This document shows, one piece after another, positions 16,276 to 58,247 of a stretch of 64,000 nt of DNA. A program made the position numbers and the translations under genes. Origin of the DNA: a virus (taxonomy: Duplodnaviria > Caudoviricetes); the IMG/VR virus record IMGVR_UViG_2859564202_000001. The stretch is one strand, 5' to 3'. Positions within the stretch are counted from its first letter, which is position 1. Every line of letters starts with the position of its first letter. The notes below the pieces were generated by a model that made no database searches, was not told where the DNA came from, and saw only the letters and a program-made list of their open reading frames with translations.

Positions 16276-16416
16276 GCCTCAATTCTCCTATCCTATTCCT
16301 TATTTAACTACGGCCTATCGTACAGGGAAGATAAGTCGCCTTATTGATATCGCAGCCCAATACGCGCCCCTGCTTCAGCGGGTCCGACCCCCGGATGGTG
16401 GACACGGAGGATTTGA

Positions 16417-30292: not shown

Positions 30293-30313
30293 CAACCACA
30301 AGAAAGATTTATC

Positions 30314-34105: not shown

Positions 34106-34199
34106 CTACCGCTGGGTAGACCCCTTGATGACCTAAAAGACCTGGTAAAGCTGGTAAAATTCAGTACTACCAACGCTTTTACATCAAGGGGTTTTTGTC

Positions 34200-34649: not shown

Positions 34650-34885
34650 ATTGACATTTTTTACACAGATTTTTACATCAACAACCACCTACGAGCAGGT
34701 TTAATAGCCTCTCATGGGTGGTTGTCTTAATTAAGGGTGTTGCGTGAAACACGCAACCGGAGAGGAGGGTGAAGTGTGGGGTTCCTTGCGGGCGTATGTC
34801 CGGGGTGCTTGCTATGCTTCAAACGATTTCATTCAAGAAACTTAATTTATTAACAACTCTTAAAAGAAAAGGAGAGCTGGTCATC

Positions 34886-35305
34886 ATGATCACTCGTCAC
34901 GATGTTCCCTACATCATCGCTCCGCCTGTCTACGCGATCTTTGCGAGCCTGATGACCACGCCACCATGGTTTTATCGAACCACCTACACCATTGACGGTT
35001 TCGATTTTAAGATCAGCTGGGTCTACACCATCACCATCTACATCAGCCTCATGATCCTCATTATCGGGTTCTACCAAGCCAATATGCGCAAAGCGTGCCC
35101 TTATGAGGAAGATCCTTTGGTCGATATTTGGCACAAGGTGTGGAGCACTGCACTCTTTATCCTACCTATCGTTTTATCCATCGCGGTGTACTCACTGATC
35201 ACACAGCGCGGGTTTGACTGGTATGTCATGGTGTTTATTCTCCCTGTAGGCTTGATGATCGCTTATGGATTCTTCAAGCCCTGTGATTGCGACAAACACC
35301 GTTAA
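34886..35305 (+). CDS. Four-TM membrane protein
   Basis: Four hydrophobic segments; AAGGAG RBS. Confidence 0.75.
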   Translation: MITRHDVPYIIAPPVYAIFASLMTTPPWFYRTTYTIDGFDFKISWVYTITIYISLMILIIGFYQANMRKACPYEEDPLVDIWHKVWSTALFILPIVLSIAVYSLITQRGFDWYVMVFILPVGLMIAYGFFKPCDCDKHR

Positions 35306-35482
35306 GGTATACTTGTCCAAGACTTTCCCCACCGGCAGCCCAATAAGGGCTGCGCCTAACTTAAAACACGACACATAGAACCCCTCCCCGGCCACACGCC
35401 CCAGAGGGGTTCTTTTTCATCCTTTTTAAAATATACTTATATGTATTAATCCCCTCTTTGTGCAGCATAGGAGACTACTGCT

Positions 35483-38294: not shown

Positions 38295-38645
38295 TTATTC
38301 GAAAGGAATGCCTTCTTTTTCGCAGTACTCTTTGTACGCGTCGATGATTTCCTGTGGCACGATACCACGTTGACCAACGGCCATGTCATTGTCAATAGCC
38401 CACAAACGCGCCTTACGGTGCAGCTCTGCATCTACAGATCCACGACGGATCTGGCGTGCAGATTCCTCACGACCAATCTTGATGACTTCTTTGAGCGTGA
38501 TCATATCGAGCTCAGTATCAATGTCGTCACCATTAAGGTCCACTACATACTGTTTACCCTCGTAGACCACGCCTACAGAGACGACATTGGTGATGCGCTC
38601 ATGTGAGACATCAGATGTGTATTCGACCGACTGAATAATGGCCAT
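38295..38645 (-). CDS. cgpS: Lsr2-like xenogeneic silencer CgpS
   Basis: Lsr2 N-domain (YTSDVS..YEGKQYVVDL) and C-domain (RLWAIDNDMAVGQRGIVPQEIIDAY) with RGI AT-hook-like motif. Confidence 0.9.
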   Translation of the reverse strand: MAIIQSVEYTSDVSHERITNVVSVGVVYEGKQYVVDLNGDDIDTELDMITLKEVIKIGREESARQIRRGSVDAELHRKARLWAIDNDMAVGQRGIVPQEIIDAYKEYCEKEGIPFE

Positions 38646-39279
38646 GTCCATAGTCCTAACCAATCATGTAATAAATGTAATAACTTAGTGTCACATAATA
38701 CTACATAATTTATTGTGTTTAGGTTATGTCAAAGTTATTGACATACTTTCTTAAAGCTCGTGATTGAACATCTAGCTAGATAAAAAACTTCTTTCATCAA
38801 GCCTTTTCTTCACTAGTTGCTCTTATTCTCCATTAAATCACTAAATTACCTAATAATGCAATCTAATCGACTCTTATTGGTCAATTAAGTGTCAATTAAA
38901 GGAATTTTCTTAGGCTTAATGAAAAGTACTGTCGCATATCTACTTTTAACTACGACACCAATACCTACAGCGAAACTGTTTAATAACCTAAATAACGACA
39001 CCACTTCGACAAAAACAATAATAAAGTCATGTCATTTTTTAGTCGCAGCGTGCGCACACCATAGTGGGACCTGGTAGGGCTCCCACGTCTACGCTCAAAC
39101 GCGCGCAAGTACGCTCACGCACACTGTAGCTACACAGACGACCAGTTAAAGCACAGTCAATCCGCGGATACCACCAGCATAGGCACACGCCGGCAGTGAT
39201 GCACCGCACTTGAGAAAAATAAATCATCTCAAGAAACAAACTAATACGTTATTATTGTAATTTAATTAGAGAAAAGAAA

Positions 39280-42435: not shown

Positions 42436-43014
42436 TTACTGTATCGCAGCAGCAAGTTCCTGCTCAGTCGGAATCGCCAATGGCGTGCCTGCATAGATCA
42501 GGTCTGGATCAACAAGCTTGTTGCGATCAATGATCAACCCAACCGGCACACCACTGTCCTGAGAAATAGAGGACAAGGTTTCGCCATTCTCAATGACGTG
42601 CACCGTACCTGGACGGGCAGGTCCTGCGACAGCATCAAGTGCTGATACTGGTGTGTCACCGTTGCCGGTAATGGTCAAGGTGGGGTCGGTCGGAGCCGTT
42701 GGCTCTTGAGCACTGTCGTGCTCACGGGGTTCTTTGTGATCTGAGTCTGCGCCTTCGGCGGTGCCTGTGTTGCTGTCAGCATCACTGGCGTCAGATGAAG
42801 AAGGATCGTGAACCTTCGTGACAATTTCGGTTTCTGTCACGACCTGATTTTTTACCTCGTCCTGTGGCTCGACGACGGCCACTGTATTGACATCACCACC
42901 GCCTTGGGCGAGAAAGGTCACGCCTGATCCACCTGCAATAACGGCAGCAGCAATAAACGCACCTGCTGCCACACCTGGTACTCGATTTTTCGGCATTGCG
43001 CCTTTAATCGCCAT
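42436..43014 (-). CDS. Membrane-anchored/secreted LysM-domain protein
   Basis: C-terminal HVIENGETLSSIS..NKLVDPDLIYAGTPLAIP; N-terminal TM segment. Confidence 0.9.
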   Translation of the reverse strand: MAIKGAMPKNRVPGVAAGAFIAAAVIAGGSGVTFLAQGGGDVNTVAVVEPQDEVKNQVVTETEIVTKVHDPSSSDASDADSNTGTAEGADSDHKEPREHDSAQEPTAPTDPTLTITGNGDTPVSALDAVAGPARPGTVHVIENGETLSSISQDSGVPVGLIIDRNKLVDPDLIYAGTPLAIPTEQELAAAIQ

Positions 43015-43184
43015 GTTCGTTTGTCCTTTACCTTTACCCGTTTAATGTTCCCTGGATACTACAAATTAAACTCTAGTATCTTATTAATTTCTGTTACTAT
43101 TAACATATAGGTTTTTTAAAGTTTCGTCTACATAAACCTGCAACAGAAATCACTACACCCAGTTCTCGAAAGGCTTTTTCTCTC

Positions 43185-44408
43185 ATGACCTACCCAGTTA
43201 CCCCTCAACCTGTGCAGCCAGCACCAGTCGCCGAAAAGATCAAGGCATCAAGCCTCAAAGAAGGCACTCAGGTATTTATCAAAGGTCGGGTTAATTACTC
43301 CCGCATCGCAAGCTTTATTACTGGTACCGAGCGCGAAAACCGTAATCGCGACAGGCTTCACCCAATCGAATTCGACTACACCTCCCTGACTTTGAGCCAC
43401 CCTGAAATCATCTACGGCAACCCGCAACAAAAGACCAATGAAGAACTCTTCCTTGAGCAGCGAATCTTTGTCGGCAAGAAGCGTCCTGAAGAGGGTCCAA
43501 AATTCTCCATTGACAACAAGAGCAACCGTCTACCACAGGTTTGGGTGCCATCCACCAATGCTGATGGTACTTATGAGCAGCTTGAAGGTCTCGAAGGTGA
43601 GCTCGACGCAGGGCTCAACGTCATTATTCTCATCGAGTTCTATAAGCCACGTACACAGGTTAATCGCGGCTCCCGCCTCAACGCCGTGTTCCTGCAGGAG
43701 CCCATTCGTTACTACACCCCTGGTTACAATGCAGATAAGCTCGCTGCCCTCGGAATCGTACTTAACGCACCGCCAAAGGACACTATTCAGCTCGTTCCTA
43801 ATGAGGTCGCTGCAGGACAAGACCAGTCCACCACCGATGCATCCGGTCTCCCGCTTCCAGGCCAGGGATATAGCGCACCTGATCAGCCATATCAGGCGCA
43901 GCCTCAGTATCAGCAGGCAACCCCAGCGGCTGCACCTCAGCAGTACCAGGCCCCACAGCCCCAGTACCAGCAGTCAGCTCCACAGGCACAACCTGCACCG
44001 GCACCAGTTGCGCAGTTCCAGCAGGCAGCGCCTCAGGCACCTGCTCAGCCAGCACAGCAGCAGTATCAGGCACCACTTCCTGCCGGTAATCCTCTTGCAG
44101 CAGGTCAGCCAGTTGCACCACAGGCTCCACTCAACCAGCCAACTCCGGCAGTACAGCAGGCAATGCCTACCCAAGCCCCACAAACACCGGCACAACCAGT
44201 TCAGCCACCAGCACCACAAGCCGGTTCTGCATTTACCGATGCTCCGGGTGCTGTGCCACAGGCACCAGCAGTTCAGGCTGCTCCCGCTGTAGCTCAGGCG
44301 CCTGTCGCGCCAGTAGTTGATATGACCGAGCCAGCATCCCCATGGGATCTTCCAGCTGCACCTAGTCAGCCAGCGCAGCCAGCTCAGGGCATCACCTACC
44401 CGGCATAA
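43185..44408 (+). CDS. Putative ssDNA-binding protein with long P/Q/A-rich tail
   Basis: About 200-aa beta-rich N-domain (KGRVNYSRI..RGSRLNAVFLQEPIRYY) reminiscent of phage OB-fold SSBs, then a disordered tail; next to the primase gene. Confidence 0.5.
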   Translation: MTYPVTPQPVQPAPVAEKIKASSLKEGTQVFIKGRVNYSRIASFITGTERENRNRDRLHPIEFDYTSLTLSHPEIIYGNPQQKTNEELFLEQRIFVGKKRPEEGPKFSIDNKSNRLPQVWVPSTNADGTYEQLEGLEGELDAGLNVIILIEFYKPRTQVNRGSRLNAVFLQEPIRYYTPGYNADKLAALGIVLNAPPKDTIQLVPNEVAAGQDQSTTDASGLPLPGQGYSAPDQPYQAQPQYQQATPAAAPQQYQAPQPQYQQSAPQAQPAPAPVAQFQQAAPQAPAQPAQQQYQAPLPAGNPLAAGQPVAPQAPLNQPTPAVQQAMPTQAPQTPAQPVQPPAPQAGSAFTDAPGAVPQAPAVQAAPAVAQAPVAPVVDMTEPASPWDLPAAPSQPAQPAQGITYPA

Positions 44409-44560
44409 CAACCAGCACAACCCTTAGACCCCAGACTCGCATTTTGCAGGGTTTGGGGTCTTTTTTCACCAGGGTCGAGGCGCGGTCTGTGTGCCCACCT
44501 CGACCCACTTTTCGCCCACCACTTTTCGTCAACCTACCAACAACAAAGCCCAGGTCACTT

Positions 44561-45841
44561 ATGGTCAACCCTTTTCACACGCTTGATAACTCACCGTTTG
44601 ATCCGGTGGCACAGTTTCCTGCGTTTTATCACAACCCGCTTATCAATCACTTGGGCCGCCGTCGCGCCTGGACAATCTCAGACATCAACAAACGCCCCAT
44701 CAATGTCCAACAGATGCTGACCACGGCCACCTACGGTAGCCCCGTTATTCATGGTGCCCGCATTGAAGACGCAGCAACCTCCCTACTTACCCTGGATGAA
44801 CTGCGTACACAGATTCCCACCGCTGCCAACAATGCGTTTTATCTCGATGCTGTCCAAGATGGCTGTCTTATTTTAGATATTGAAAAAACCTGTCCCCCCG
44901 AGGTCGCAGCCACACTACTCACGCTCTCCCCCACCGCCTTTTACACAGAGGTGTCCATGAGTGGTCGTGGCTATCACCTCGTTATGCCGATACCAGAGAA
45001 TTTTGCAGCGTTTCCTGCCGTACACAACAAACCCAGTATCAAACACCCCAAGCGCTGGTTCGAAATTCTTACCTCACAGTGGATCACCTTCACCCGACAA
45101 CCAATCCCAGAGCATGTTCTCCATCACAGTGAATCTGCTAACACAAGTGCTGTGCCATGGTTGAATGATCAACCACTTACATGGGAAAACGTCTTTGCAG
45201 ACTTAGCTAAAACTGTTGCACCCAACTTAAAAACCGGTGCCGGACTTACCATCACACCCAATGCACTGATGCCACCAGATCTCAGCGATGCTGAGCGCAT
45301 TCGCGACGATGAAGTCATCGACTCGACCTGTCGATTATTTGCCGAACATTACTCGAAAACACTTGCGGACTTCTATGATGATGCATCCCGGTTCGAGTTC
45401 AGCCAAATTGGTGTCATTATCAATCTACTGCTCCCCACTATGAGGATGCATCCCACCACGATCAGTCTCGACAAACCCATCAACTCCGATCACATCATCA
45501 GACTTCTGTTCGCTGTCGCTACTCGCGTGATCACTCACCGCAGCAAACATGATGAGGAGCGATCTGGCGTTCCGTATCTGATGTATCAGGTTATTTCCTG
45601 CCTTGACATGCGAGAACACCCCGACAATGGCGACTACCGTGTCGTACCCTCCCGGCATAATAGAGACCAACACAGCAACAACCCCTCAGCTCATGTGGTC
45701 CACCAACAACCACAACCCCAGCCCAGCGCAGCAGATTCGCCACATCACTACCGTGCACTACCCCAAGAAAACACGGTGTCCGAACACAGTTTTAAAATCT
45801 ATAACCCACCAGCCACACCCCCTCTAGGAGGTGAAAATTAG
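44561..45841 (+). CDS. Archaeo-eukaryotic primase (AEP/Prim-Pol) family protein
   Basis: K.P motif (NKRPIN), hhhDhE (LILDIEK), YTEVSMSGRGYHL, downstream FEIL; helical C-domain with DASRFEF. Confidence 0.75.
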   Translation: MVNPFHTLDNSPFDPVAQFPAFYHNPLINHLGRRRAWTISDINKRPINVQQMLTTATYGSPVIHGARIEDAATSLLTLDELRTQIPTAANNAFYLDAVQDGCLILDIEKTCPPEVAATLLTLSPTAFYTEVSMSGRGYHLVMPIPENFAAFPAVHNKPSIKHPKRWFEILTSQWITFTRQPIPEHVLHHSESANTSAVPWLNDQPLTWENVFADLAKTVAPNLKTGAGLTITPNALMPPDLSDAERIRDDEVIDSTCRLFAEHYSKTLADFYDDASRFEFSQIGVIINLLLPTMRMHPTTISLDKPINSDHIIRLLFAVATRVITHRSKHDEERSGVPYLMYQVISCLDMREHPDNGDYRVVPSRHNRDQHSNNPSAHVVHQQPQPQPSAADSPHHYRALPQENTVSEHSFKIYNPPATPPLGGEN

Positions 45842-45850: not shown

Positions 45851-45888
45851 TAAAACACTTGTTCTAAACATAAGGAACGCGCTACCAT
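45851..45888 (+). promoter_or_regulatory. Candidate SOS (LexA) box overlapping a sigmaA-type promoter
   Basis: TAAAACACTTGTTCTA vs actinobacterial consensus TCGAACAnnTGTTCGA; TTGTTC-N18-TACCAT. Confidence 0.5.
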
Positions 45889-46246
45889 TCATAGTTAGTG
45901 GGCATTCCGCCCCATAACAAACAGTAGAAAATTAAGTAGCACAGCATTGTAAATGTCGGGGAAACAAAATTATTCAACACTTTTCCAACTAATTGTTGAT
46001 ATGCACACTTTGTCGAACAATTACAGGAGCTACATGCACTTTTACATTTTCTATCAGCTTGTTATTAGTAATTATTTATCTGATTAAAATATCGGAGTTT
46101 ATTTATGTGATTTGACCGGTAATTGCACAATAAAGTAATAGTTAATTACTAGGTATAGCAACGGATTAAATAATCACTATAATTAATTCTTTCCGTACTC
46201 ATTTTAATCACTACCTATTCACCACTTGAACGGAGCGTTTTTCGCC

Positions 46247-46822
46247 ATGTTGAAATTCCGCATCATCTCCACAGTCACTACTGGATCTCAGCCAACTCCA
46301 CGAAAAAGCTGGAGCCACCCCGACACCACTCTCCTGGTCACCATGGTCACTGCACCATCGCTGTGCTCAGCCATCAACGTGTGGAACGCAACTGAGCGTA
46401 TTCCCGCTCAAAAAATCCTTAATGTCGAAGAAGTACACGTTCTTGGTGAGTGCAGCGACGCCATCATCTCTACGTCACTAACCAAAAAGGACAATCCGCA
46501 CGCACTTGTGCCCGATGATTTCGACCAAATCGGCGATGTGTTTGGCTATGCGCAAGACAATGTAGCTGTTTTTGATGTCATTGTCGCAGCACTGGGCGGT
46601 GCTGGTTATGGCCTGCTACCCGGACTGGTCATGCACCACATTGATGAGCACACCGTTGCACTTGTCTTTGATACTGATTCCCCTACTGGGACGCATATCC
46701 TCGGTGAGCGCTGCGTGTACTCCGACATCATTCACATGACTGACGATAAGTCTGCCCGTGGCTGGGGTGCAGTCATTGCCATAGCACGAGCCATCATCCT
46801 CAAAGTCGAACAGATCATGTAG
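46247..46822 (+). CDS. Hypothetical protein
   Basis: GGAG RBS; 191 aa. Confidence 0.7.
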   Translation: MLKFRIISTVTTGSQPTPRKSWSHPDTTLLVTMVTAPSLCSAINVWNATERIPAQKILNVEEVHVLGECSDAIISTSLTKKDNPHALVPDDFDQIGDVFGYAQDNVAVFDVIVAALGGAGYGLLPGLVMHHIDEHTVALVFDTDSPTGTHILGERCVYSDIIHMTDDKSARGWGAVIAIARAIILKVEQIM

Positions 46823-47022
46823 TACCCCACCATGACTCACTTGATTCACCACAATCGACCGCCCGTACCAGCATCACTACCTGTGCACGTGCAGAACCAG
46901 ACCTGCTCTCCGCCCATTATGAGCAGGTCTATGTCATATCTACCCACACTATTTTCTTGACCCAACGAAATGTGAATCACATTCTCTTCTCCACACACCT
47001 CGCATAAGAAAGAACACTTATT

Positions 47023-47205
47023 ATGGCTAAAGAATTCGAATTCACCATCCCTGACCAACATAATCGTTTACCGCTTATTTACCTGGTCGCAGCACGCACA
47101 ATCACCAGCGCTCGCACTCAGCTTCGTGCTGAACTCGATCAGGACGACCCCGATTTGCTCTCAAGTATCGACATTGATGCGCTCCCCTACGTCATCGTCG
47201 AGTAA
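47023..47205 (+). CDS. gip: Small protein, probably the gyrase inhibitor Gip
   Basis: 60 aa (about 6.8 kDa), in the position I recall for cg1978 just before the MoxR ATPase; assigned by size and synteny, not by motif. Confidence 0.6.
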   Translation: MAKEFEFTIPDQHNRLPLIYLVAARTITSARTQLRAELDQDDPDLLSSIDIDALPYVIVE

Positions 47206-47298
47206 AGGCGTTTCTTTTTCTCCCCCTGTGGTCTGACCTGTCAGGCAGTCAGGTTGGTTGATTTTTTCTGGCGGTGGCTGCATGGTGCAGCGTCAGTG

Positions 47299-47327
47299 AA
47301 AAGACAACACAGCGAAGCTGTGTTCGG
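47299..47327 (+). repeat. Dispersed hairpin element, copy 4
   Basis: AAAAGACAACACAGC-GAA-GCTGTGTTCGG. Confidence 0.7.
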
Positions 47328-47496
47328 GGGATTATGTGAGATCGCACCGGCACGTGTTGCGGTGCGGATCGCACGTTGTTCTCTTGTGGCCTGGCTCAGA
47401 TAGCCACTACCTACACGCATCTGTTGTGCTGAAACAACAGCGCGACACTCACTCTTCTCATTACTCAACAACTTACTTTTAAGGACTACATAACTT

Positions 47497-48756
47497 ATGT
47501 CTCTCTACCTTGACGACACTTTGTCTCGCATCGTTGAACTTGATCTCAAAGACACCCGCATTGTGCCGTTTCTTGCTGGTGAACCAGGTATCGGTAAAAC
47601 CTCATTCATCTACGGCATCGGCGAACGTGCAGGCTACAAAGTCTTCAGTATCTCGGTTAACACCCTTGCCGATAAGGGTGACCTCACGGGCGCTCGCACC
47701 CTGCAGGACCCTGCCGATGGCAAGTGGAAGCAGATGTTTTTCCCGCACGCGACCTTCGTCGAAGCAAATGACTATGCACTAGCAAACCCAAACGAAACGG
47801 TCGTCATTCTTCTCGATGAGATTAACCGAACTGATTCGGATGTCACCTCTGCCTCGATGACTATCTCTACTGAGCGTCGCGTTGGTACCACCGATCTAGC
47901 ACCCAATGTCCGCCTTGCTGTCACCGGAAACCTCACCGGTAATGTCACCCACCTTGATTCAGCATCTCTGACCAGGTTCTCCCTCTATGAGGTCAAGCCA
48001 TCCGCAGAGACCTTCATGAACATCATGGGCGGCCGCCTCAACAAGTACATCCGTACCGTGCTGACCAAATACCCGGAATACATCTTCATGAAGCCAACTA
48101 CTGCTACTGCTCTTATTACCACTGGCGATGATGATGACGACCATACAACCAATGCGAAGCAAATGATGGACTTCAACGCTGTGCTCGGTTCAGACCAAGA
48201 CATGGTTCAATTTACCGCACCTAGAACTATCGAAGGTTTGTCCGTCTGGCTCAACAACGCCGATGATGACTTTCTTCGTCTACTTCTACAAGAAAAGGTG
48301 GATGGTCTTGCTCGATCCATGAGCTTGCTGCAGGCTACGCTCGAATCTCACACCGGCGATACCGCTTTTACCGCAGAAGTCCTCAGCGAAATGACCAATG
48401 ATCTGCTGAGCTCCGCATCGCAAGCTCCTAGTGGTCCAATCAAACCATTTGTCTACGACCGACTCGCTGCTGCACCAAGCAATACTGTACTGGAACAAGA
48501 GGTTCACACACTCAGTCTCAATGACCGCGCCGATGTCTTGTTGTTTGCCCTCCATGACACTGTAAACAACGCTGCACCAAGCATCATCGCTCACCTTGCA
48601 TCTGAAGGCGTACTTGATGAACTGCCCAAAGACAGAATCAGCAAAATTGTTTCACTCGGTCCTGTACCAACGGCAAACTATCACGCCTTGACCAGACAGG
48701 ATACAACGTTGACTCGAAATCTCGGTCCCGCTGTCTTGGGCTTCTTGGAAAGTTAA
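47497..48756 (+). CDS. MoxR/dynein-like AAA+ ATPase
   Basis: GEPGIGKT, DLTG, LLDEINR, TGN, LDSASLTRF, APRTIE. Confidence 0.9.
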   Translation: MSLYLDDTLSRIVELDLKDTRIVPFLAGEPGIGKTSFIYGIGERAGYKVFSISVNTLADKGDLTGARTLQDPADGKWKQMFFPHATFVEANDYALANPNETVVILLDEINRTDSDVTSASMTISTERRVGTTDLAPNVRLAVTGNLTGNVTHLDSASLTRFSLYEVKPSAETFMNIMGGRLNKYIRTVLTKYPEYIFMKPTTATALITTGDDDDDHTTNAKQMMDFNAVLGSDQDMVQFTAPRTIEGLSVWLNNADDDFLRLLLQEKVDGLARSMSLLQATLESHTGDTAFTAEVLSEMTNDLLSSASQAPSGPIKPFVYDRLAAAPSNTVLEQEVHTLSLNDRADVLLFALHDTVNNAAPSIIAHLASEGVLDELPKDRISKIVSLGPVPTANYHALTRQDTTLTRNLGPAVLGFLES

Positions 48757-48879
48757 AGCAATTTCCTAAGTACCTTTGGCAGCTGAGGTAGTCATCTGTC
48801 TACCTGCGTGGAGTAGACACTAAATCCTGTCCACGCACCCTTACCCTTCTTGACACTAGTAATTGAAAGCGATCCCCTC

Positions 48880-50706
48880 ATGGTTACCTTCAGCGTCGCA
48901 AATCACGCGCCTCATACTTTTAGCCCATTCGATATTGAACCACCACTCACCGGTAACGCCACCACCGACGAACATGGTTACGAACACACCTCAGTGCTAG
49001 AAAAACTAGCCTCCAACCACCTGTTCAATCCAATCAATCCGCAACACCCAGTCACTATCACAGCCACCGAAAACGGATCAACCGTTGATCTTGATGCAGC
49101 AGCACTAGCACAACATCTTGCTCTAGCGATTACCCCAGACTCAATGCTGGCAAATCATCAAGGCTACAACCGTGACATGATGGGTCTACTTTCGCAGCTT
49201 ACTAACCATGTTGGCTTTGATCGCCGATTCATTGTTGACCAACTCTTTATCTCCCAAGTGCTCAAAGCGAATCGTCTACCAGCACCGGCAAACAACGTTA
49301 TTTACACCGTGCCCAATGACGTTATCCCATCTGCTAAAGACATCTTGTCCACCACTGCAAAAATGAACAATCCACTGACAGTTACTGCAAGTGCCCCAAT
49401 TACTGTTGACGACATTCACACAGCCTATGAGGTATTTTTCGCTTCTCTTGCCTCAGTGTTTTTCCCTTATACCTACGGTGCGGTATTCCTTAACAACGCA
49501 GAATTCGTTGAGTTTGTTGATTACCTTATTAACGAAGCAACAACACTGCACTCGGCATCACTCATCTCCAACAACACCTTTAATAGGTTCCAATCAATGC
49601 GTAACATCTCCATTGATAATCTCACCGCCGAGTTTCTCTTACGCAAAAATGAAGCAGAGACAACTGATGATTATTCATTCCCCCGCGTACTTGTTTCCCT
49701 GCTGCATTCTTGGGTGAAACTCAATCACGATGATGCTCGTGCTAACAATGATGCACCCACCTGTGCACTAGCACCGTTTAGTGTGGCTCAATGGATCATG
49801 CCGGAGACCATTGTGTTTATTAATGCTGAAGCTCATGCTCATGCATCCTCCCAGGACATTGAGAAGAAATGGAAGGAAATTAATGCGGCGTTAACAGGGT
49901 CTATTCGTATTATGTCGCCAAATGCAATTTCCAAGCTGCAATCTGCTCAGCATCTCGGGATGCAAGCACAAATGCAGGCCATGCGTGCTCGAAAAGATCA
50001 CCACAACATGCAGAAGCGTTCCTCACAAGAAAACGACTTTTCCAAGGCACTCCCCTCACCACAGACTATCGTGCTTTCTGTCGCAGAGGTTCTGCGCAAA
50101 CTCACTCACGTACGCCAATCGCACAACCCTCAGAAATACCAGAAGAAGTCTCTGACCAGAGCTTCTCGCCGACACCCGGATAACCCTAATGTCCCTGGCA
50201 CCATTAAGAGCAAGCTCTTCTACCCTGACCTGCATGTTTATGTAGATACTTCTGGTTCGATTAGTGAAGAAAGCTACCGCAACTCTGTGGTTCTGCTCAT
50301 GCAGCTTGCCACCAAACTGGACATCAACCTCTATTTCTCCACCTTCTCTCACGTGCTCTCCGAAGAAGTACTATTGCCGACCAAGGGTAAAACACCACAG
50401 CAATTGGCAGCTCTTATTTCGGCCATCCCAAAGGTCTCTGGCGGTACTGACTATCACCAGATTTGGGATTACATCCAGATCAATCCGCAGCGCCAAGAAC
50501 GCATGAATCTTGTGTTAACTGACTTCGGATTCATGCCGAATCGCGGCTTAAACATCGACCACCCAAGTTCTATTTTCTACGTCCCAATCCTGCCTGACTA
50601 CGGCAGCTGGTCAATGGTTCGAAGAGATATGTCTCATTTCGCAAATGAAATGGTTGACTTCGACCCCTATATCCACAGCCGACTACTCGGCGTACACGGA
50701 AAATAG
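48880..50706 (+). CDS. VWA-domain protein (MoxR partner)
   Basis: MIDAS VYVDTSGSIS, SGGTDY, VLTDFG. Confidence 0.85.
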   Translation: MVTFSVANHAPHTFSPFDIEPPLTGNATTDEHGYEHTSVLEKLASNHLFNPINPQHPVTITATENGSTVDLDAAALAQHLALAITPDSMLANHQGYNRDMMGLLSQLTNHVGFDRRFIVDQLFISQVLKANRLPAPANNVIYTVPNDVIPSAKDILSTTAKMNNPLTVTASAPITVDDIHTAYEVFFASLASVFFPYTYGAVFLNNAEFVEFVDYLINEATTLHSASLISNNTFNRFQSMRNISIDNLTAEFLLRKNEAETTDDYSFPRVLVSLLHSWVKLNHDDARANNDAPTCALAPFSVAQWIMPETIVFINAEAHAHASSQDIEKKWKEINAALTGSIRIMSPNAISKLQSAQHLGMQAQMQAMRARKDHHNMQKRSSQENDFSKALPSPQTIVLSVAEVLRKLTHVRQSHNPQKYQKKSLTRASRRHPDNPNVPGTIKSKLFYPDLHVYVDTSGSISEESYRNSVVLLMQLATKLDINLYFSTFSHVLSEEVLLPTKGKTPQQLAALISAIPKVSGGTDYHQIWDYIQINPQRQERMNLVLTDFGFMPNRGLNIDHPSSIFYVPILPDYGSWSMVRRDMSHFANEMVDFDPYIHSRLLGVHGK

Positions 50707-50784
50707 CAGCTGATCCATCTAGGGTCAGTGAACTCTCGCGGATTGCCACACACCACCAACCACTACAAGAAAGAACCCCCTACC

Positions 50785-52695
50785 GTGCCTTTTCACGATT
50801 TCACTGACCCTGATAGCGATCCTAGGCAAAATGCACCAGCTAACCCCACCGCTCAACCGCCATCTGCCCCCACCTCACACTCATCACAGCAGGGTCTCCC
50901 TCCGGGCGCCATTATGATCCCTTTTCCAGGGCAACCGCAGCAGCAAAGCGCACCCAATGACGAGACCCGTTTCATCGACCTTAACGAACGTCATAAAGAT
51001 GATGAACCAGCCCTGTTTCGCGATGATGTTATTGATCAAACTCTCGCTATTTTGATCAGTAAAAATAAGCCCAATGCGCTACTCGTTGGGCCTGCCGGTA
51101 CAGGTAAATCCCGTATCGCAGAAGATATTGCGCGCCGCCTTGCCAATGATGACGTATCTATTCCCGATCAGCTTGTCGGCCACCGTATTCTTGATGTCTC
51201 CATTGCAGAGCTTGTTGCTGGTGCTGGCGTTGTTGGTCAGCTCGAAGAACGCATTCTGGATCTCATCAAGTATGCGACCGACCCGAGTAACAAAGTCATT
51301 ATCTTTATTGACGAGATTCACCAAATTGCTGGTGATCAGTCCAGTCACAGTGGATCGCAAGCCAAAGTTGCTCAGATTCTCAAACCCTATCTTGCCCGTG
51401 GTGACCTTCGTGTTATTGGTGCCACCACCACCCAGGAAGCTCGTGACTTCGATCATGATCCAGCCCTCAAACGCCGTTTTAGCAGAGTAAATGTCGATGA
51501 ATTTGATCGAGATCAAACGCTCACTATTCTTCATGCTGCACGTGATGGTTACCTCAAACATTTCAACAACGCTGTCACGGTATCTGACGACGTACTGGGC
51601 TATGTCTACACCTACTCGCAGCAATTCAACCCAGGCAATACAGCACAACCTGATGCAGCACTGACGCTGTTTGATAAGGCGTTGGCTTCCCTAACTATGG
51701 AGAAACAGCGTCTGATCAACAACCATGTCATTGCGCCGTCGCTCAAGTTCCCTGTGTCAGAAAGGCACATCCATAACACCGCTCGCAAACTTGCCTTTGG
51801 CTCTCAAGTGCCAGCCTCCATCAATACTGATGATGCTCGTGACAAACTCGAAACGTTGTTTGGTCAAGATCATATTATTGAGCCAGTACTCACCGCTATC
51901 AAGCGTGAACAGCTTGGTATTTTCCCTCGCACCAAACCATTGAGCTGGGTGTTTGCTGGTTCATCTGGTGTGGGTAAAACAGAAATGGCGCGTATTCTCT
52001 CTCGCGCCATTAATGGCGGCGATCCCATCATTATCAATGGTCCCGAATACATTAGTCCTGAGTCCATTACTGGCCTTATCGGATCATCCGATGGCTATAT
52101 CGGCTCTAATTCTAAGCGTGCTAAACCACTCGACCCGCTGATTTCTAATCCGCGTCAGGTGATTGTGCTCGATGAATTTGAGAAGTCTCACCCTCATTTC
52201 CAGCAATTGTTCATGGCAGCTCTTGATACAGGCACTATGGCGATGGCTAATGGCACGACATTGAATTTCTCTCAGGCCATTATCATTGCCACCACCAATG
52301 CAGCCCGCGACAAAATCGGTCGTGACAGCTTTGGATTCGATTCAGATAATTCAGGTGTCCTCGGTTCTGCTCAAGCAGCAACTGATCCGCGTGCACAGGA
52401 ACGCCTCAAGTCACTGATGTCCAAGGATTTCCCTGTTGAACTGCTCAACCGTTTCCAGAATATCTTTGCCTTCAACCGCATTGATGCAGGCACCTACCGT
52501 GAGATTCTGGACAATCTCTACCAGCGTCGCCGTGACGCCGTGCTGCTTAGCCACCCGCATTACGCAGCACAGATCCCTGCAGATATTGATTCAGACACTC
52601 TTGATCAGCTGGTGGAAACCACCTTTATCTCAGATTTTGGTGCACGTCCTGCTGCACGCACCATCGAAGACCACATCGCATCCTTGCTGATGTGA
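50785..52695 (+). CDS. Hsp100/ClpA-C-type double AAA+ ATPase lacking the canonical N-domain
   Basis: NBD1 KPNALLVGPAGTGKS, FIDEIH, GATT, DPALKRRF; NBD2 GSSGVGKTE, LDEFEK, ELLNRF, GARP. Confidence 0.9.
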   Translation: MPFHDFTDPDSDPRQNAPANPTAQPPSAPTSHSSQQGLPPGAIMIPFPGQPQQQSAPNDETRFIDLNERHKDDEPALFRDDVIDQTLAILISKNKPNALLVGPAGTGKSRIAEDIARRLANDDVSIPDQLVGHRILDVSIAELVAGAGVVGQLEERILDLIKYATDPSNKVIIFIDEIHQIAGDQSSHSGSQAKVAQILKPYLARGDLRVIGATTTQEARDFDHDPALKRRFSRVNVDEFDRDQTLTILHAARDGYLKHFNNAVTVSDDVLGYVYTYSQQFNPGNTAQPDAALTLFDKALASLTMEKQRLINNHVIAPSLKFPVSERHIHNTARKLAFGSQVPASINTDDARDKLETLFGQDHIIEPVLTAIKREQLGIFPRTKPLSWVFAGSSGVGKTEMARILSRAINGGDPIIINGPEYISPESITGLIGSSDGYIGSNSKRAKPLDPLISNPRQVIVLDEFEKSHPHFQQLFMAALDTGTMAMANGTTLNFSQAIIIATTNAARDKIGRDSFGFDSDNSGVLGSAQAATDPRAQERLKSLMSKDFPVELLNRFQNIFAFNRIDAGTYREILDNLYQRRRDAVLLSHPHYAAQIPADIDSDTLDQLVETTFISDFGARPAARTIEDHIASLLM

Positions 52696-52716
52696 CCAAC
52701 CTTTTAGGAGTACATC

Positions 52717-53193
52717 ATGATTGATACCACTGCTAACAGCACCTCAGGCACCCTACCTACACTCACTGCTGACCAAGCTGCGTTTATCACCGGTTTTTGC
52801 GAGGCTGCTATCTTCACAGCCACCGTCACAATAGATAACGAACCTATATTTCTTGATGAAGCGTTCTTCTTAGGTCAAGAAACCTATACCGACATTCTCA
52901 TGAATCAACTCCGCACCAATGAAGCCATTGTTAAAGACTGTCTCGACTTCTTCCTTGACAACTACACCACAATGAACAAGCTCATTGTTGATGGTCTATG
53001 CCCAGATTGGGAGCACCACGGCCATGATTTCCTACTCACCCGTGACCATCATGGTGCCGGATTCTGGGATCGTGGCTACGACGAATACGGTGCCCAACTC
53101 ACCGACAATGCCGAAAAATATTCAGAAAACTGTCTCAATTTCTGGATTGAGCCTGATAGTGACCCTCTCATTATCAACTTCGAGTACCACTAA
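52717..53193 (+). CDS. Hypothetical protein
   Basis: AGGAG RBS; GHDFLLTRDHHGAGFWDR motif. Confidence 0.75.
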   Translation: MIDTTANSTSGTLPTLTADQAAFITGFCEAAIFTATVTIDNEPIFLDEAFFLGQETYTDILMNQLRTNEAIVKDCLDFFLDNYTTMNKLIVDGLCPDWEHHGHDFLLTRDHHGAGFWDRGYDEYGAQLTDNAEKYSENCLNFWIEPDSDPLIINFEYH

Positions 53194-53284
53194 CACCCCT
53201 TGACCTTATTTTTCTTTGGTTAAGGGGTGTTAGCCACCCCACCTACTCACTGTTATTTCCCACGACCAAAGAAAACTCACCCAC

Positions 53285-53443
53285 ATGTACGATTTTCAAA
53301 CTATCCCGCAGCCACCTCGTGACGGCTACGACAACCCCTCACTTGATCCACGCAACCCTGGTTACCGCGAGCAAGAGTACGAGGATTACCTCAACGCCGT
53401 GCTCATGACAGGTAATTCAACGCGTTACCCTGCTGCAGCATAA
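53285..53443 (+). CDS. Small 52-aa protein (below the ORF-track cutoff)
   Basis: MYDFQTIPQPPRDGYDNPSLDPRNPGYREQEYEDYLNAVLMTGNSTRYPAAA; fills the operon gap. Confidence 0.5.
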   Translation: MYDFQTIPQPPRDGYDNPSLDPRNPGYREQEYEDYLNAVLMTGNSTRYPAAA

Positions 53444-53499
53444 AAGAACCTGCCTCAACACACCTCCACTTTTTCTACTTTTAAGAAAGCCACATTCTC

Positions 53500-56400
53500 A
53501 TGCCAATTATCATTGATAACCTCAATTCTGACGACGACTCCACCATCGGCACTGCCACCGAATACAACCCTGACACTGACGCCGATTTACTTGATGCTAT
53601 TAACGCTGATGCTGACCTTGATGGCGACGCCACCATCAGCACTAACGCGACAGAAGAAGGTGTAGACGCAGCAGCTGAAAAACCTAAGAAAAAGCGTAAA
53701 GCCCCTGCTCTGAAGCCTAAAGGACTCACGGCAAAGTTCTTCCACCGTGATCTTACTGGCGTAGGTGGTAGGACCGGTCGCCTCAACAAGAACGTACACC
53801 CGACCAACCCAGATCTGTCCTACCAGCCAGTCTCTGATGTCTACACCCCACAATCAGCAGATCACAAGGGTATTAAGACCCGCTACATCCTTACCCATCC
53901 AACCCCCGCTGTTGTTCTCAGTGAGTCCATCAGCAACGCGTTTCATGTCTCTACCCTGCGTCGCAACAATAATGTCAACAACTCTGATTCGGAATTGGCT
54001 GCCTGGCCGTACCTCTACCAACTCGATATTCCGCAGCTGGACCAGATGATTAATGTCGCTGACATCTGTGATTACCATTTCCACGGATATAACCTGTGGG
54101 TGGATTTTACCCCGCAGACTATCGCTCTACGATCCGGTAAGACGGTACTCGATGACGGTACCACCGCCTCTGATAACACCACTCATGTCTATTACCGCGT
54201 CACCGTTCACGTTATTGCCGGTCAAGATCATGGATCTACTCTGCTTGATGACCAGGGCAACCAGGTGCTTGATAGGGATGATAATCCTATTTCTACCCCA
54301 AGTATCAAGCGTATTGGCGCTGTCACTGATCTTTTCGATCACAATCCTTTTGGCTTCGCTAGTGTAAACTCTTTCGCATTTGTCGATTTCTCATGGGACC
54401 CAGCCACCACCTTGGTCGATATGCTCAACAACCTTGATTCATATCTCTCTAATCACATCAATATTGCCAGCTCCCCAACCCCCATTGCCCTCGATATGGT
54501 TGTGCTCAATGAATGGTCTGAAAAGTCCTATCAGCTGTGCGAACGCGTTGTTGCACAGGCAAAGCTCATCAACAGCAACAAGATCACCGCACATGTGAGT
54601 GATGTCATCAAGCAAAATGCCCACAATATCTTGTGGTTTACCGAACAGATGAACCCTGGCACCACCAACCTCAGCGAGGTACCTATCTCCAAGAAGTCTA
54701 TGCTGCCGATGTCTCGCCAGCTACGTATTTTGGAGCACTACGATGTACCACTGACCGCGTACTCTGCTCTTTTCTGGACTGTCAGCGCCATTAAGAATGA
54801 ATCTATGGTGCAGTACCTTGTGCGACAGAATATGCAGCTCACCTTGAGCTCAAATCTGGATGCACTCAACTCCATTGTCTCCCAGCTCCCTGTACCAGAT
54901 AAGGACGTTGTGGCTGCTTCTGGCTACCAGATTCAGCCACACTTCTCCACGCAGCAGCGTGAAGCAATCACCACTGATAATCCTCTCGCGATTATTCAGG
55001 CCGGTGCTGGTACCGGTAAATCCACCGTGATTCTGGAACGCATTGAGTACTTGTGCGCTGCAGGCACCAACCCTGAAGAGATTGCTGTGCTGTCTTTTAC
55101 TAATGCTGCCGCCGATAACATCACAGCAAAAAATGACAAGGTGACCTCTATGACCATCTCCAAGATGGTTCATGAGATTTACGCACACAATTTCCCTGAT
55201 CATGAGATCTCCACCATCGACACCATTATCAATACGCTTGATATTGAATACGGCGATCAAATGGTGACCTCCGATTACATGATTCAGCTCCGTGACCTGC
55301 TCTATAAGGTCATGACGCAGGGTGGCAACGCCAACCTGACAGCGTTGAGCATCTTCATGGAATCCCATATCGAGGCGTTCATCTCGGTGTTGGATCAGAT
55401 CAAGCAGACTTCTCTTGAGCTGGAAATCATCATCTGCTACCTGCTCTTGGATAAGCTGATCGAGCCTCATGCATCGCCGAAGTACCTCATTATTGATGAG
55501 GTGCAGGACAACTCGGTCTTCGAGTTCGTCTTTGCACTTCGTTTTGCGGCAAAGCACAATACGAGTCTGTACTTGGTGGGTGACTCGTCACAGACCTTGT
55601 ATGAGTTCCGTTCTGCTAACCCTAAGGCTCTGAACTCCCTGGAAGCATCTGGTGTTTTCGGTACCTACCGTTTGACCACCAATTACCGTTCCAACCAGGA
55701 AATTCTTGACTTCGCTAATATCCACCTCTCGGATATTGAAGCTAACCAGTTCGCAGGTATTCAGCTCTACGCCAACTCTTTTGATGCACCTACTGCGGAC
55801 AGCTTCAAAGAAAAGGTTGAACTGGACATGCACCATGTGTCTAAGCAGTCTGAGTTTACCGACAGCATTCCTTATTTCATGGAGTCCAATAAAGCTCGCT
55901 TTGATGCTGCGATCTTGAACAATGAGCAAACCATTGTGCTTGCTCATTCTGGTCGTGAAATTCGTGCAGCGCAGCAAGCGCTAGCCGAGATGTACCCCAG
56001 CATCACGGTGCGTAACTTGCAGTCCGATAAGGGTTTCAACAACACGGTATTTTCGACCTTTATTAAGGATTTCTGGTTTGAGGTCACCGCTGTAGACCCA
56101 GCTCATGCCGCATTTACCTTTACCAGCCAAGTCACCGCTCATCTAGATAAGTTGGTACGCGGAAAGCGTGAGCAGATGGAGGATCGCGTTATCCGGTCTA
56201 TGGCTGCATGGTGGCGTGAAAATGAGCGTGACATCCAGGGTTGGGTGCAGCAAACTCAGTCCGGTGCGATCACCAACGAAGAGTTCTTCTACCGTCTTCG
56301 TCAGTGCATTCTTGACTATGAAATCAGGAATAACCGAGCACGTCAGTCCATGCTCAATGCGCGCAACAACGCTAACAAGGAGGCTGTCGCACAGGAGAAA

Positions 56401-57267
56401 CCACTGCTCATGGTCTCCACCATTCACAGTGCAAAGGGTCTGGAATTCGATAATGTCATCGTGCTTCAAAAACCAAGCTCCGATGCAGAGATGACCGAAG
56501 AAGGTAAGCGCGCAACCTATGTGGCGCTGACCCGTGCAAAAAAGCGTGAACTCATTATTGCTGGTTCTACTCGCGCATACCCACGCATCGTCACCGATTA
56601 TGAGCAAATCGTTGATCTTCTTGAAAAGCGCGATGAGGAGCGCAAAATTAAGGAGGAAGAGGCTGCAGCACTCGCCACCCTTGAAGCTGAACAGGAGACG
56701 CGCGCCCTTGCTGCTGCTGAGGCGCAGGCTCAGGCGTTGTTGCTTGAGCACAACCCGTGGTTGCGTGATCTCAGCGATGAAGAAGTCACTGCTCTAACTG
56801 AGCAAGAGATCATCAACAATGTTGAGGCAGCCCTACAGATTGAAGAAGAGGAGGAAGAGGCTCGTGCACTCGCTGCAGCAGAGCCAGCAATTCAGCAGTA
56901 CTTGTCTCAGTTTGCTTTCGATGAGTTCCCGGACGACGACAATGTAGCCAACACTGTCGTACATGTAGCACCACAGCCTATTCTCCACCAGGCAGTGCCT
57001 GCAGATGTGACTGTACAATCAAGCACCGCCCCCGTAACACCTGTTGTTGCGGATCTTGAGGTAACCACTGTTGCAGCTGATCCAGTCGAACCGACTATCG
57101 TTGCTGCACAGCCTGAGGTGGACGACAACCTTGTCTACAGCACGTCCACCCCTAATAGTCACAGTGACGTTATTGCAGTGAACTCTGATACCTCAGAAAA
57201 CGCTGCTGTTAATCCAGTTCTGTCCGATATTGAGGCACTCCGAGCAATTTTCAACAACCAGGACTAA
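53500..57267 (+). CDS. UvrD/Rep SF1 helicase with long N- and C-terminal extensions
   Basis: AGAGTGKS, LSFTNAAA, IDEVQD, VGDSSQTLYEFR, TNYRS, STIHSAKGLEF, YVALTRAK. Confidence 0.92.
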   Translation: MPIIIDNLNSDDDSTIGTATEYNPDTDADLLDAINADADLDGDATISTNATEEGVDAAAEKPKKKRKAPALKPKGLTAKFFHRDLTGVGGRTGRLNKNVHPTNPDLSYQPVSDVYTPQSADHKGIKTRYILTHPTPAVVLSESISNAFHVSTLRRNNNVNNSDSELAAWPYLYQLDIPQLDQMINVADICDYHFHGYNLWVDFTPQTIALRSGKTVLDDGTTASDNTTHVYYRVTVHVIAGQDHGSTLLDDQGNQVLDRDDNPISTPSIKRIGAVTDLFDHNPFGFASVNSFAFVDFSWDPATTLVDMLNNLDSYLSNHINIASSPTPIALDMVVLNEWSEKSYQLCERVVAQAKLINSNKITAHVSDVIKQNAHNILWFTEQMNPGTTNLSEVPISKKSMLPMSRQLRILEHYDVPLTAYSALFWTVSAIKNESMVQYLVRQNMQLTLSSNLDALNSIVSQLPVPDKDVVAASGYQIQPHFSTQQREAITTDNPLAIIQAGAGTGKSTVILERIEYLCAAGTNPEEIAVLSFTNAAADNITAKNDKVTSMTISKMVHEIYAHNFPDHEISTIDTIINTLDIEYGDQMVTSDYMIQLRDLLYKVMTQGGNANLTALSIFMESHIEAFISVLDQIKQTSLELEIIICYLLLDKLIEPHASPKYLIIDEVQDNSVFEFVFALRFAAKHNTSLYLVGDSSQTLYEFRSANPKALNSLEASGVFGTYRLTTNYRSNQEILDFANIHLSDIEANQFAGIQLYANSFDAPTADSFKEKVELDMHHVSKQSEFTDSIPYFMESNKARFDAAILNNEQTIVLAHSGREIRAAQQALAEMYPSITVRNLQSDKGFNNTVFSTFIKDFWFEVTAVDPAHAAFTFTSQVTAHLDKLVRGKREQMEDRVIRSMAAWWRENERDIQGWVQQTQSGAITNEEFFYRLRQCILDYEIRNNRARQSMLNARNNANKEAVAQEKPLLMVSTIHSAKGLEFDNVIVLQKPSSDAEMTEEGKRATYVALTRAKKRELIIAGSTRAYPRIVTDYEQIVDLLEKRDEERKIKEEEAAALATLEAEQETRALAAAEAQAQALLLEHNPWLRDLSDEEVTALTEQEIINNVEAALQIEEEEEEARALAAAEPAIQQYLSQFAFDEFPDDDNVANTVVHVAPQPILHQAVPADVTVQSSTAPVTPVVADLEVTTVAADPVEPTIVAAQPEVDDNLVYSTSTPNSHSDVIAVNSDTSENAAVNPVLSDIEALRAIFNNQD

Positions 57268-58207: not shown

Positions 58208-58247
58208 AAGAGCGTCGAAGCAATCTACGCTTCGACGCTCTTTTTTT
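58208..58247 (+). terminator. Rho-independent terminator
   Basis: AAGAGCGTCGAAGC..GCTTCGACGCTCTTTTTTT. Confidence 0.8.

Follow-up and report, generated by a model that had tools for sequence, protein, structure and literature searches.

Related systems and the locus

In eukaryotes, midasin (Rea1) combines an AAA+ ring with a metal-ion-dependent adhesion site (MIDAS) domain and strips assembly factors from pre-60S ribosomes. The PcrA, UvrD and Rep helicases are recruited for rolling-circle and conjugative DNA processing, as is the case of PcrA with HelP in ICEBs1. Kaur, Burroughs, Iyer and Aravind described MoxR-vWA 'ternary' systems of VMAP, iSTAND, FtsH and beta-propeller types (eLife 2020, PMC7159879), and pairs of phage proteins have been reported in which a jumbo-phage MoxR accompanies a metallopeptidase-vWA protein or a MoxR-vWA pair takes part in tail assembly of ATV (PMC7824862). 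Here we analyze a window of 64,000 nucleotides (IMG/VR record IMGVR_UViG_2859564202_000001), which corresponds to CGP3 in Corynebacterium glutamicum ATCC 13032, with attention to cg1978 (Gip), cg1980, cg1981, cg1982 and cg1985. The last four are one co-conserved, co-oriented unit, which brings together a MoxR-class ATPase, a protein with a von Willebrand factor A (VWA) domain, a Clp unfoldase and a helicase:

47497-48756, + strand: cg1980, MoxR-class AAA+ ATPase (Pfam AAA_5)
48850-50706, + strand: cg1981, protein with a C-terminal MIDAS-VWA domain, as judged by motif and predicted fold
50728-52695, + strand: cg1982, two-ring ClpA-like unfoldase (Pfam AAA and AAA_2)
53500-57267, + strand: cg1985, UvrD/SF1A-type helicase (Pfam UvrD-helicase and UvrD_C)

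In the list of open reading frames (ORFs), cg1978 to cg1985 all lie on the + strand with short gaps. The sequence-only reading, a note made earlier from the letters of the window, had pointed out three co-oriented ATPase genes with intact Walker motifs and a MIDAS-bearing VWA protein, and these are present as claimed. It had also considered their linkage not to be a characterised system, with which our literature search agrees, as no paper describing the MoxR-VWA-Clp-helicase association was found. Our tentative proposal, which we hold to be quite possible, is that the four genes are one functional block for the replication or processing of the DNA of giant conjugative elements, to which CGP3, pGKT2 and their relatives belong, and in which a nucleoprotein complex would be remodelled for the helicase. 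CGP3 is well studied in an industrial model bacterium and most of its genes have no assigned function; the block is a defined, genetically tractable target within it.

Conservation of the four-gene block

Loci holding a cg1981 relative were collected, 111 in all, and their neighbouring genes were scored by tblastn. Three actinobacterial plasmids with the same gene order were found by tblastn with cg1981 (pGKT2 of Gordonia, pGS01 of R. fascians and a Streptomyces plasmid), and a profile of the cg1981 family gave 80 loci in species genomes and 28 IMG/VR contigs of 67-250 kb. The species genomes belong mostly to Actinomycetota (Streptomyces, Arthrobacter, Kribbella, Nocardiopsis, Promicromonospora, Microbacterium, Actinomyces and others) and in some cases to Bacillota (Lachnospiraceae, Oscillospiraceae, Evansella), and one locus comes from a metagenome-assembled genome (MAG) of Muribaculaceae. 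Two genes upstream of the block are also needed for the comparison:

43185-44408, + strand: p407 (probably cg1975, to judge from the gene order), with which the conserved block begins
44444-45841, + strand: p465, by gene order probably cg1976; resembles primase-polymerases of the archaeo-eukaryotic primase (AEP) type

The genes of the neighbourhood were scored as follows:

MoxR: 111 of 111 loci
Clp: 109 of 111 loci
Helicase: 108 of 111 loci
p465 (PrimPol-like): 98 of 111 loci
p407: 95 of 111 loci, always upstream of p465
LysM gene (homologue of cg1974): 63 of 111 loci, with position and orientation as in CGP3
SNF2 helicase: 46 of 111 loci

The VWA gene lies directly downstream of the MoxR gene at every locus, and the order MoxR-VWA-Clp-helicase is constant across the set. 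The loci without Clp or helicase are three truncated contigs, and all 108 loci that are long enough have both. Reverse searches were seeded with p465 and with the helicase; of the 29 long IMG/VR contigs that have a helicase of this family, 28 also have the MoxR-VWA-Clp triad. The sequence-only reading had staked its case on a synteny survey and on the genes being conserved together, and with 108 of 108 informative loci and the result of the reverse search this part of it held: the linkage of the four genes is far beyond chance. A fixed four-gene unit is thus found in more than 100 elements of 67-250 kb from Actinomycetota and Bacillota, including elements from gut and oral metagenomes and a transferable catabolic plasmid.

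The four-gene order is kept although many loci have insertions of 1-4 kb between one gene and the next. In two loci (L071 and L082), the PrimPol-like gene has been relocated to a place shortly downstream of the helicase, and the unit of four genes is intact. Moreover, the window is colinear with pGKT2 and pGS01 from the P4-type primase (seen in the pGKT2 locus) to the helicase, the common order being the 1263-aa protein, SNF2, Lsr2/CgpS (on the opposite strand), p407, p465, MoxR, VWA, Clp and helicase. Among the 111 loci the block was never seen as a free-standing island and always sits in the same element backbone, which argues for a function in the life cycle of the element over a role as cargo.

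Apart from the slot upstream of the MoxR gene that is described below, there is a second insertion hotspot, inside the block, where 1-4.5 kb of extra DNA lies between the VWA and Clp genes (L005, L006, L008, L056 and L080). Insertions in this gap occur in several Streptomyces, Promicromonospora and other loci.

The MoxR and VWA proteins

From its sequence, cg1980 is assigned to the MoxR class of AAA+ ATPases, in the AAA_5 group with midasin, CbbQ and NorQ. It matches Pfam AAA_5 with 30.8 bits (cut-off 22) and falls below the threshold of AAA_3, the family of MoxR proper (19.4 bits, cut-off 27). The Walker A (GEPGIGKT) and Walker B (LLDEINR) motifs, N145 as sensor-1 and R160 as arginine finger are invariant in 85 distinct homologues. 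A profile of cg1980 run against the PDB has midasin as its best match (E 7.8e-13), followed by CbbQ and NorQ, all of which operate with MIDAS-VWA partners. The C-terminal half of the protein, about 240 aa, is uncharacterised.

The neighbour cg1981 probably starts at 48880, which gives 608 aa as in the database protein record, and is laid out as an N-domain (~440 aa), a linker in which the motif NRRxP is invariant and the C-terminal MIDAS-VWA domain. The VWA assignment rests on motif and predicted fold and not on a family-model match. There is no Pfam match to cg1981 at E 0.01, and PF00092 (VWA) gives 12.9 bits, below its gathering value of 23.8; among 20 relatives, 14 match PF00092 weakly (best E 3.5e-4) and 8 match the 'VWA-like' DUF2201 weakly. 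In these 20 relatives, the MIDAS residues D466, S468, S470 and D558 are invariant and T533 nearly so, within the motifs D466-T-S-G-S, G531-G-T533 and T557-D558 (TDF), which are themselves invariant or nearly so; DTSGS is also present in most of the locus-encoded homologues that were checked. The model of residues 455-618 (pLDDT ~80) has a VWA/I-domain fold, with a Foldseek E of 1.5e-4, and superposes on the CD11b I-domain (6rhv_C, Z 11.2, rmsd 3.6 over 142 residues) as well as on Rea1-MIDAS (Z 9.2) and BchD (Z 8.9).

The likeness to midasin, CbbQ and NorQ thus extends to both proteins, with cg1980 closest to them by profile and cg1981 carrying a complete MIDAS in a domain that resembles Rea1-MIDAS. 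Unlike in midasin, the ATPase and the MIDAS are on separate chains, as in CbbQO and NorQD, with one AAA module per chain. The clients of the latter pairs (Rubisco and NO reductase) are irrelevant here, and the N-domain and the genomic context are unrelated to theirs.

As for the phage pairs, cg1980 matches phrog_1297 (E 3.3e-24) and the linker and VWA part of cg1981 matches phrog_1314 (E 5.3e-7). In contrast to these pairs, cg1981 lacks the metallopeptidase signature, HExxH being absent in 116 members; it found no match by tblastn in 50,697 phage records, and the relatives that were checked have no match to the HK97 capsid family. A zincin-like N-domain, suggested by rows at noise level (Z ~3), was rejected. 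Modelled alone, the N-domain reaches a pTM of 0.76 and has no convincing structural match (Foldseek against the PDB, best E 0.19; VIA-align, best Z 4.4; BFVD, best E 0.03).

The cg1981 family comprises 236 clusters (50% identity) at E<=1e-30, of which the best 150 are mostly of 540-610 aa with full-length matches. Within these best 150, the architecture is uniform and there is no effector swapping. Apparent MoxR/VWA fusions in long ORFs were rejected as over-extended starts in high-GC genomes.

The Clp unfoldase and ClpP

The sequence of cg1982 points to a ClpA-like, protease-coupled unfoldase and not to a ClpB-type disaggregase. It matches Pfam AAA (E 1.3e-24) and AAA_2 (E 5.3e-27); each ring has intact Walker A and B motifs, and the motifs are conserved in 100 distinct homologues. 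In the same 100 homologues, the pore-loop Tyr of the second ring (D2; GY[VI]G loop) is kept in 96%. An FGF tripeptide at residues 535-537 follows the D2 sensor-1, with the G of xGF in 99% and the F in 97% of the homologues (pattern [IVMF]-G-F), and its position presumably corresponds to that of the IGL loop of ClpA.

Among the solved relatives listed, ClpA is the sole one that aligns both rings in one stretch (83-651 to 174-713), and it is also the best single-stretch match among NCBIfam models; the matches to ClpB and ClpC cover the first ring (D1) alone or fall into two stretches. Such a one-stretch alignment indicates that there is no M-domain. The identity does not reach equivalog level, with 299.6 bits for the ClpA model TIGR02639 (cut-off 993) and 265.7 for ClpB (cut-off 1232). 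The likeness to ClpA and ClpAP lies therefore in the two rings aligned in one piece, the lack of an M-domain, the GY[VI]G loop and the xGF tripeptide. Unlike ClpA, cg1982 has no Pfam match to Clp_N and bears a P/Q-rich stretch (residues 1-80) in its place, its D1 pore loop lacks an aromatic residue, it stays far under the ClpA equivalog cut-off, and it is encoded by the element and fixed beside the MoxR-VWA pair. The 'Hsp100' of the sequence-only reading thus stands as a Clp-type AAA+ unfoldase and falls as a ClpB-type disaggregase, given the putative ClpP-docking tripeptide and the missing N and M domains.

Besides this docking loop, 3 of 10 related IMG/VR records (L097, L100 and L104) encode a ClpP of their own (E 1e-72 to 1e-78), in two of these elements about 16-20 kb from the block:

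G003:C1:137122-137661: element-borne ClpP gene
G004:C1:7964-8497: element-borne ClpP gene
G008:C1:39832-40374: element-borne ClpP gene

The conservation of xGF and the presence of ClpP on the elements together favour an unfoldase that is coupled to ClpP.

The helicase and the replication-type neighbours

All SF1A motifs that are shared with PcrA, UvrD and Rep are found in cg1985 (Q, I, Ia and II-VI), with no or almost no variation among 89 sequences, and the helicase is carried by a conjugative element. Its Pfam scores are 74.8 bits for UvrD-helicase (cut-off 23) and 65.5 for UvrD_C (cut-off 25.6), the UvrD-type core spans about 480-1030 and the spacing of the motifs is consistent with 1B and 2B inserts. 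It appears not to be orthologous to the cellular UvrD, PcrA, Rep or HelD, as the NCBIfam models of the first three give 80-84 bits against cut-offs of 911-1144 and HelD gives 52 against 419. The family differs from those helicases by a conserved N-terminal extension of 300-480 aa (480 in cg1985) with motifs of its own and no known domain. At its very N-terminus (window 53500-53800) the family keeps the pattern MP[ILV]x[ILV], in most cases with D or N next, and then a PKFF..LTGxGKxTGL(L)N motif; these motifs could be docking peptides, such as a MIDAS ligand or clamp- or Clp-binding segments. Pfam scans of all members of the helicase N-terminal and p407 alignments gave no consistent family. Among the 89 sequences, the tail at 1041-1255 is confined to C. 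glutamicum.

Group I introns typically occupy conserved sites of important genes. An insert of about 415 bp that resembles such an intron was found in the helicase gene of two loci (L084:16273-16685 and L090 at about 16369-16795), where it splits motif III exactly at the junction of the positions that correspond to G694 and D695, and is lacking in the sister elements L087 and L092. The L084 insert scores 46 bits with Rfam RF00028, below the gathering value of 50, with E 1.7e-10. We count its location for the importance of the helicase gene. The intron-bearing subgroup of IMG/VR relatives includes an 'uncultured Actinomyces' MAG contig.

Upstream of the block, p465 has the invariant residues D145, E147, S171, S173, G176 and H178, in the AEP-type pattern D-x-E and SxSGxGxH. 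The top PDB match of its profile, a weak one at E 0.06, is the NrS-1 primase-polymerase, aligned on the invariant motifs, and in the ESM Atlas it falls among Prim-Pol, NrS1-1_pol-like_HBD and PriCT clusters (features 0.93-0.95, structure TM 0.51/0.67). For p407, the ESM Atlas gives clusters that are partly Enc34_ssDNA-bd or Phage_ssDNA_bind (features 0.87-0.91, structure TM 0.28-0.61), and its profile found no support for a family binding single-stranded DNA (ssDNA) in the PDB or Pfam; that p407 may be a phage-type ssDNA-binding protein is no more than a lead. Further upstream lie other genes that are shared with the plasmids:

28394-37324: P4-type primase, ~1263-aa protein and SNF2-type helicase, a stretch colinear with pGKT2 and pGS01
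38295-38663, - strand: CgpS/Lsr2 gene, in the same place as the Lsr2 genes of the pGKT2 and pGS01 plasmids

The P4-type primase of the window is 54% identical to the pGKT2 gene, and the 1263-aa protein matches a PHROG annotated as 'DNA polymerase' (E 1.6e-18). That the constant neighbours of the block are replication-type genes points to the processing of the element's own DNA.

The match of cg1985 to a defence helicase deserves a comment at this point. In PADLOC, the best match of cg1985 is GajB (E 9.1e-41) and the D2 ring of cg1982 matches PDC-M37B and DolB, and MoxR-vWA cores with a second AAA+ component (FtsH) have been described as conflict systems (PMC7159879). One could then read the locus as an element-borne defence or exclusion system, a fifth type of MoxR-vWA 'ternary' system in which Clp is the third component and the sensor or effector is a GajB-like helicase. 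The likeness is real in that a MoxR-class AAA+ gene stands beside a vWA/MIDAS gene with a conserved third component, and the FtsH type is the closest described kind, as its third component is a second AAA+ protein with two modules. However, the third component here is ClpA-like, with both rings active and the ClpP loop, the vWA domain is C-terminal behind the N-domain, the UvrD-type helicase is a fixed fourth member, and the setting is the backbone of a conjugative element and not a mobile conflict island; the block never stands free of it. Variable effector domains are absent, as are components of the VMAP, iSTAND and FtsH kinds, the GajB-like helicase has no GajA as partner, and the PADLOC matches cover only the generic helicase core and an AAA+ module. 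No full system was returned for the block proteins of the window, and nothing at all for MoxR, VWA, p407 or p465. We regard a defence function as very improbable.

The kind of element that carries the block

The window is filed as a virus, and a phage carrier is not supported by what we find: the region is colinear with pGKT2, a plasmid that is transferred conjugatively (Jung et al. 2011, cited in PMC5640721). A TraG-type coupling-protein domain is encoded by four of five related IMG/VR records, the HK97 capsid family, which was the one capsid family searched for, is found in none of the five, and three of the five have direct terminal repeats (assembled as circles). The relatives filed as viral that were tested therefore look like circular conjugative plasmids rather than phages, which supports re-labelling CGP3 and many 'viral' IMG/VR contigs as conjugative plasmid-like elements. 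The IMG/VR records behind L084, L100, L102 and L111 are filed as viral, and the tested sizes are 87-252 kb.

In five related records that keep the block, there is neither an Lsr2-domain gene nor Gip, and the same holds for the block-bearing elements of Bacillota in general. From this it follows that gyrase and CgpS cannot be the general target. The targets that the sequence-only reading had in mind (CgpS/Lsr2 filaments, stalled gyrase and restriction enzymes) are thus not supported, also because no defence or anti-defence model matches MoxR or VWA.

The nearest form of its idea of host takeover or anti-defence would be an establishment device at work after transfer or induction. In it, the MoxR-VWA pair would choose host proteins (defence factors, silencers, repair or replication proteins) for destruction by the Clp of the element and ClpP, and the helicase would remove host proteins from the DNA that comes in or compete with them there. 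Such a redirected proteolysis would fit the conserved ClpP-docking loop and the element-borne ClpP, the N-domain of cg1981 could serve as its target-recognition module, and displacing proteins from DNA is an established activity of UvrD-type helicases. The slot beside MoxR in CGP3, moreover, holds an SOS-controlled gene and a gyrase inhibitor directed at the host. On the other hand, the architecture is invariant across two phyla, where an arms-race factor is expected to diversify; the block sits among replication-type genes; five of five related records have no Lsr2 match and none of the relatives has Gip; and PADLOC or anti-defence-like matches for MoxR and VWA are lacking. In our opinion, a takeover device is unlikely.

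Proposed function

A role in remodelling proteins or nucleoproteins, as the sequence-only reading had suggested, fits the domains found. Within this frame, our proposal of a block for DNA replication and processing would work as follows. The MoxR-class hexamer and the MIDAS-VWA protein would act like a midasin split into two chains, in which the metal site of the VWA domain would grip an acidic client peptide and the N-domain of cg1981 would give specificity. The ClpA-like ring, docked through its xGF loop on a ClpP of the host or the element, would then unfold or degrade the extracted protein. The client might be a stable nucleoprotein complex that belongs to the element (an initiator, a relaxosome or a replisome component, for example); once it is removed, the dedicated UvrD-type helicase could unwind and replicate the element together with the neighbouring PrimPol-like and ssDNA-binding-like proteins. 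There are precedents for such steps in the action of ClpX on the MuA transpososome and of ClpA on P1 RepA. The domains, active sites, co-conservation, plasmid-like carrier and co-induction are observed; we infer the physical coupling, the ClpP partnership and the identity of the client.

In its most specific form, the proposal becomes that of a novel extraction machine, in which a two-chain 'midasin' pulls a protein off the element DNA and the ClpP-coupled unfoldase takes over, licensing the helicase, in a step that would be obligatory in replication or establishment for a widespread and hitherto unrecognised family of giant conjugative elements to which CGP3 belongs. This version is doubtful. 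With a function of the kind proposed, the known MoxR-VWA set would gain a member with a role linked to DNA and a Clp partner, and the start of replication, or the establishment of large elements after transfer, might be explained.

Several points weigh against the proposal. The synteny of the whole element would hold backbone genes together even if they had no direct interaction, and the co-induction of the block is shared, since most CGP3 genes rise on induction. The N-domain of cg1981 gives no clue to the client, the D1 pore loop of cg1982 has no aromatic residue in the 100 homologues, and the assignments of p407 as ssDNA-binding and of p465 as PrimPol are weak or indirect. Finally, there is one element (L126/L138, IMG/VR contig 3300045988_181277) that has no MoxR, VWA or Clp and retains SNF2, LysM, p407, p465 and the helicase, in addition to RNA polymerase genes. 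The helicase can then work without the triad, whose role may be separable, and this element keeps the other explanations alive. Between its PrimPol-like gene and helicase (L126:10951-14422) lie a 92-aa ORF, a 437-aa P-loop protein, a YdjM-like membrane protein on the opposite strand and a 285-aa beta-solenoid protein, and a fused beta/beta'-like RNA polymerase gene, encoded on the other strand, lies immediately downstream of the helicase. The 437-aa protein was considered as a diverged MoxR and rejected (BLASTP E 1.2).

The separability of helicase and triad in this element speaks in favour of another explanation, according to which the triad would be a set of assembly chaperones for some other machine of the element (the conjugation apparatus, the single-chain RNA polymerase or a replisome polymerase), and the linkage to the helicase would be frozen synteny. 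The elements encode many large complexes, and most of the MoxR-VWA pairs that have been characterised serve in maturation or assembly, for instance CbbQO, NorQD, RavA-ViaA and that of the ATV tail (PMC7824862, PMC7159879). Nevertheless, frozen synteny agrees poorly with a MoxR-VWA-Clp-helicase order that outlasts so many insertions and with a four-gene unit that is unbroken where the PrimPol-like gene has moved away, and the ClpP-docking loop suggests degradation over assembly. Assembly chaperones are, in our view, improbable.

Genes outside the block and expression

The remaining features of the locus are the following:

42436-43014, - strand: cg1974, LysM protein (Pfam LysM E 8.6e-10); divergent neighbour, context only
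43014-43185: divergent intergenic region between cg1974 (- strand) and p407, the first conserved + strand gene
45851-45866: possible SOS box, a palindrome between p465 and cg1977 (TAGAACAAGTGTTTTA on the - strand)
46226-46822, + strand: cg1977, lineage-specific insertion outside the conserved block
46899-46930, + strand: perfect hairpin with a 10-bp stem, upstream of Gip
47023-47205, + strand: Gip (cg1978), gyrase inhibitor of 60 aa and 6843 Da; lineage-specific insertion
52717-53193, + strand: cg1983, 158 aa; variable filler with a match to phrog_1915 (function unknown), E 6.3e-19
53285-53443, + strand: cg1984, 52 aa; variable filler
58208-58242, + strand: strong intrinsic terminator with a 14-bp stem, 8 GC pairs and a T-run; likely end of the transcription unit

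Gip (Cg1978) has been published as a gyrase inhibitor of 6.8 kDa, with which the mass of the window ORF agrees. It has no tblastn match in any of the 111 loci, and cg1977 has matches in only three. The interval between p465 and MoxR is short in 61% of the loci and reaches up to 6.7 kb in others; it is a slot for insertions of variable length, which in CGP3 holds cg1977 and Gip. Both might be SOS-linked cargo placed into this slot. Gip, which the sequence-only reading had taken as part of the system, thus lies outside it, and its separation from the block genes matters for reading Gip biology. The same applies to the small proteins, as cg1983 and cg1984 have no tblastn counterpart in the 111 loci; when the 402 ORFs of the Clp-helicase gaps were clustered, neither a universal family nor relatives of cg1983 and cg1984 came out, and their role as 'small subunits' was rejected. 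The hairpin upstream of Gip, which had been called the fourth copy of a hairpin element, exists as such, and its status as a repeat copy was unsupported by a search with exact arms, by a search allowing 2 mismatches (8 hits, 5.2 expected) and by an inverted-repeat scan of the whole window.

LexA control and early induction have been reported for cg1977 (PMC4446434). The site at 45851-45866 has 3 mismatches to the SOS box of C. glutamicum, with a hit count in the window that is not above chance, and could be the LexA site reported for this gene.

In published data, overproduction of Gip raises the mRNA of cg1977 (4.5-fold), cg1980 (4.3), cg1981 (3.5), cg1982 (4.4), cg1983 (2.9), cg1984 (4.5) and cg1985 (2.0), and ciprofloxacin raises that of cg1977, cg1978 and cg1980. 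On the + strand, no terminator comparable to the one at 58208-58242 lies between 47500 and 57267. The joint rise from cg1977 to cg1985 fits co-transcription and is not proof of a single transcript, given the general rise of CGP3 genes; of the co-transcription on which the sequence-only reading relied, it is the joint rise that stands.

The divergent gene cg1974 is annotated as 'putative lysin' in the published CGP3 expression data. The published P_lys reporter of CGP3 induction presumably uses the cg1974 promoter. If so, the reporter may also reflect the control region of the block operon.

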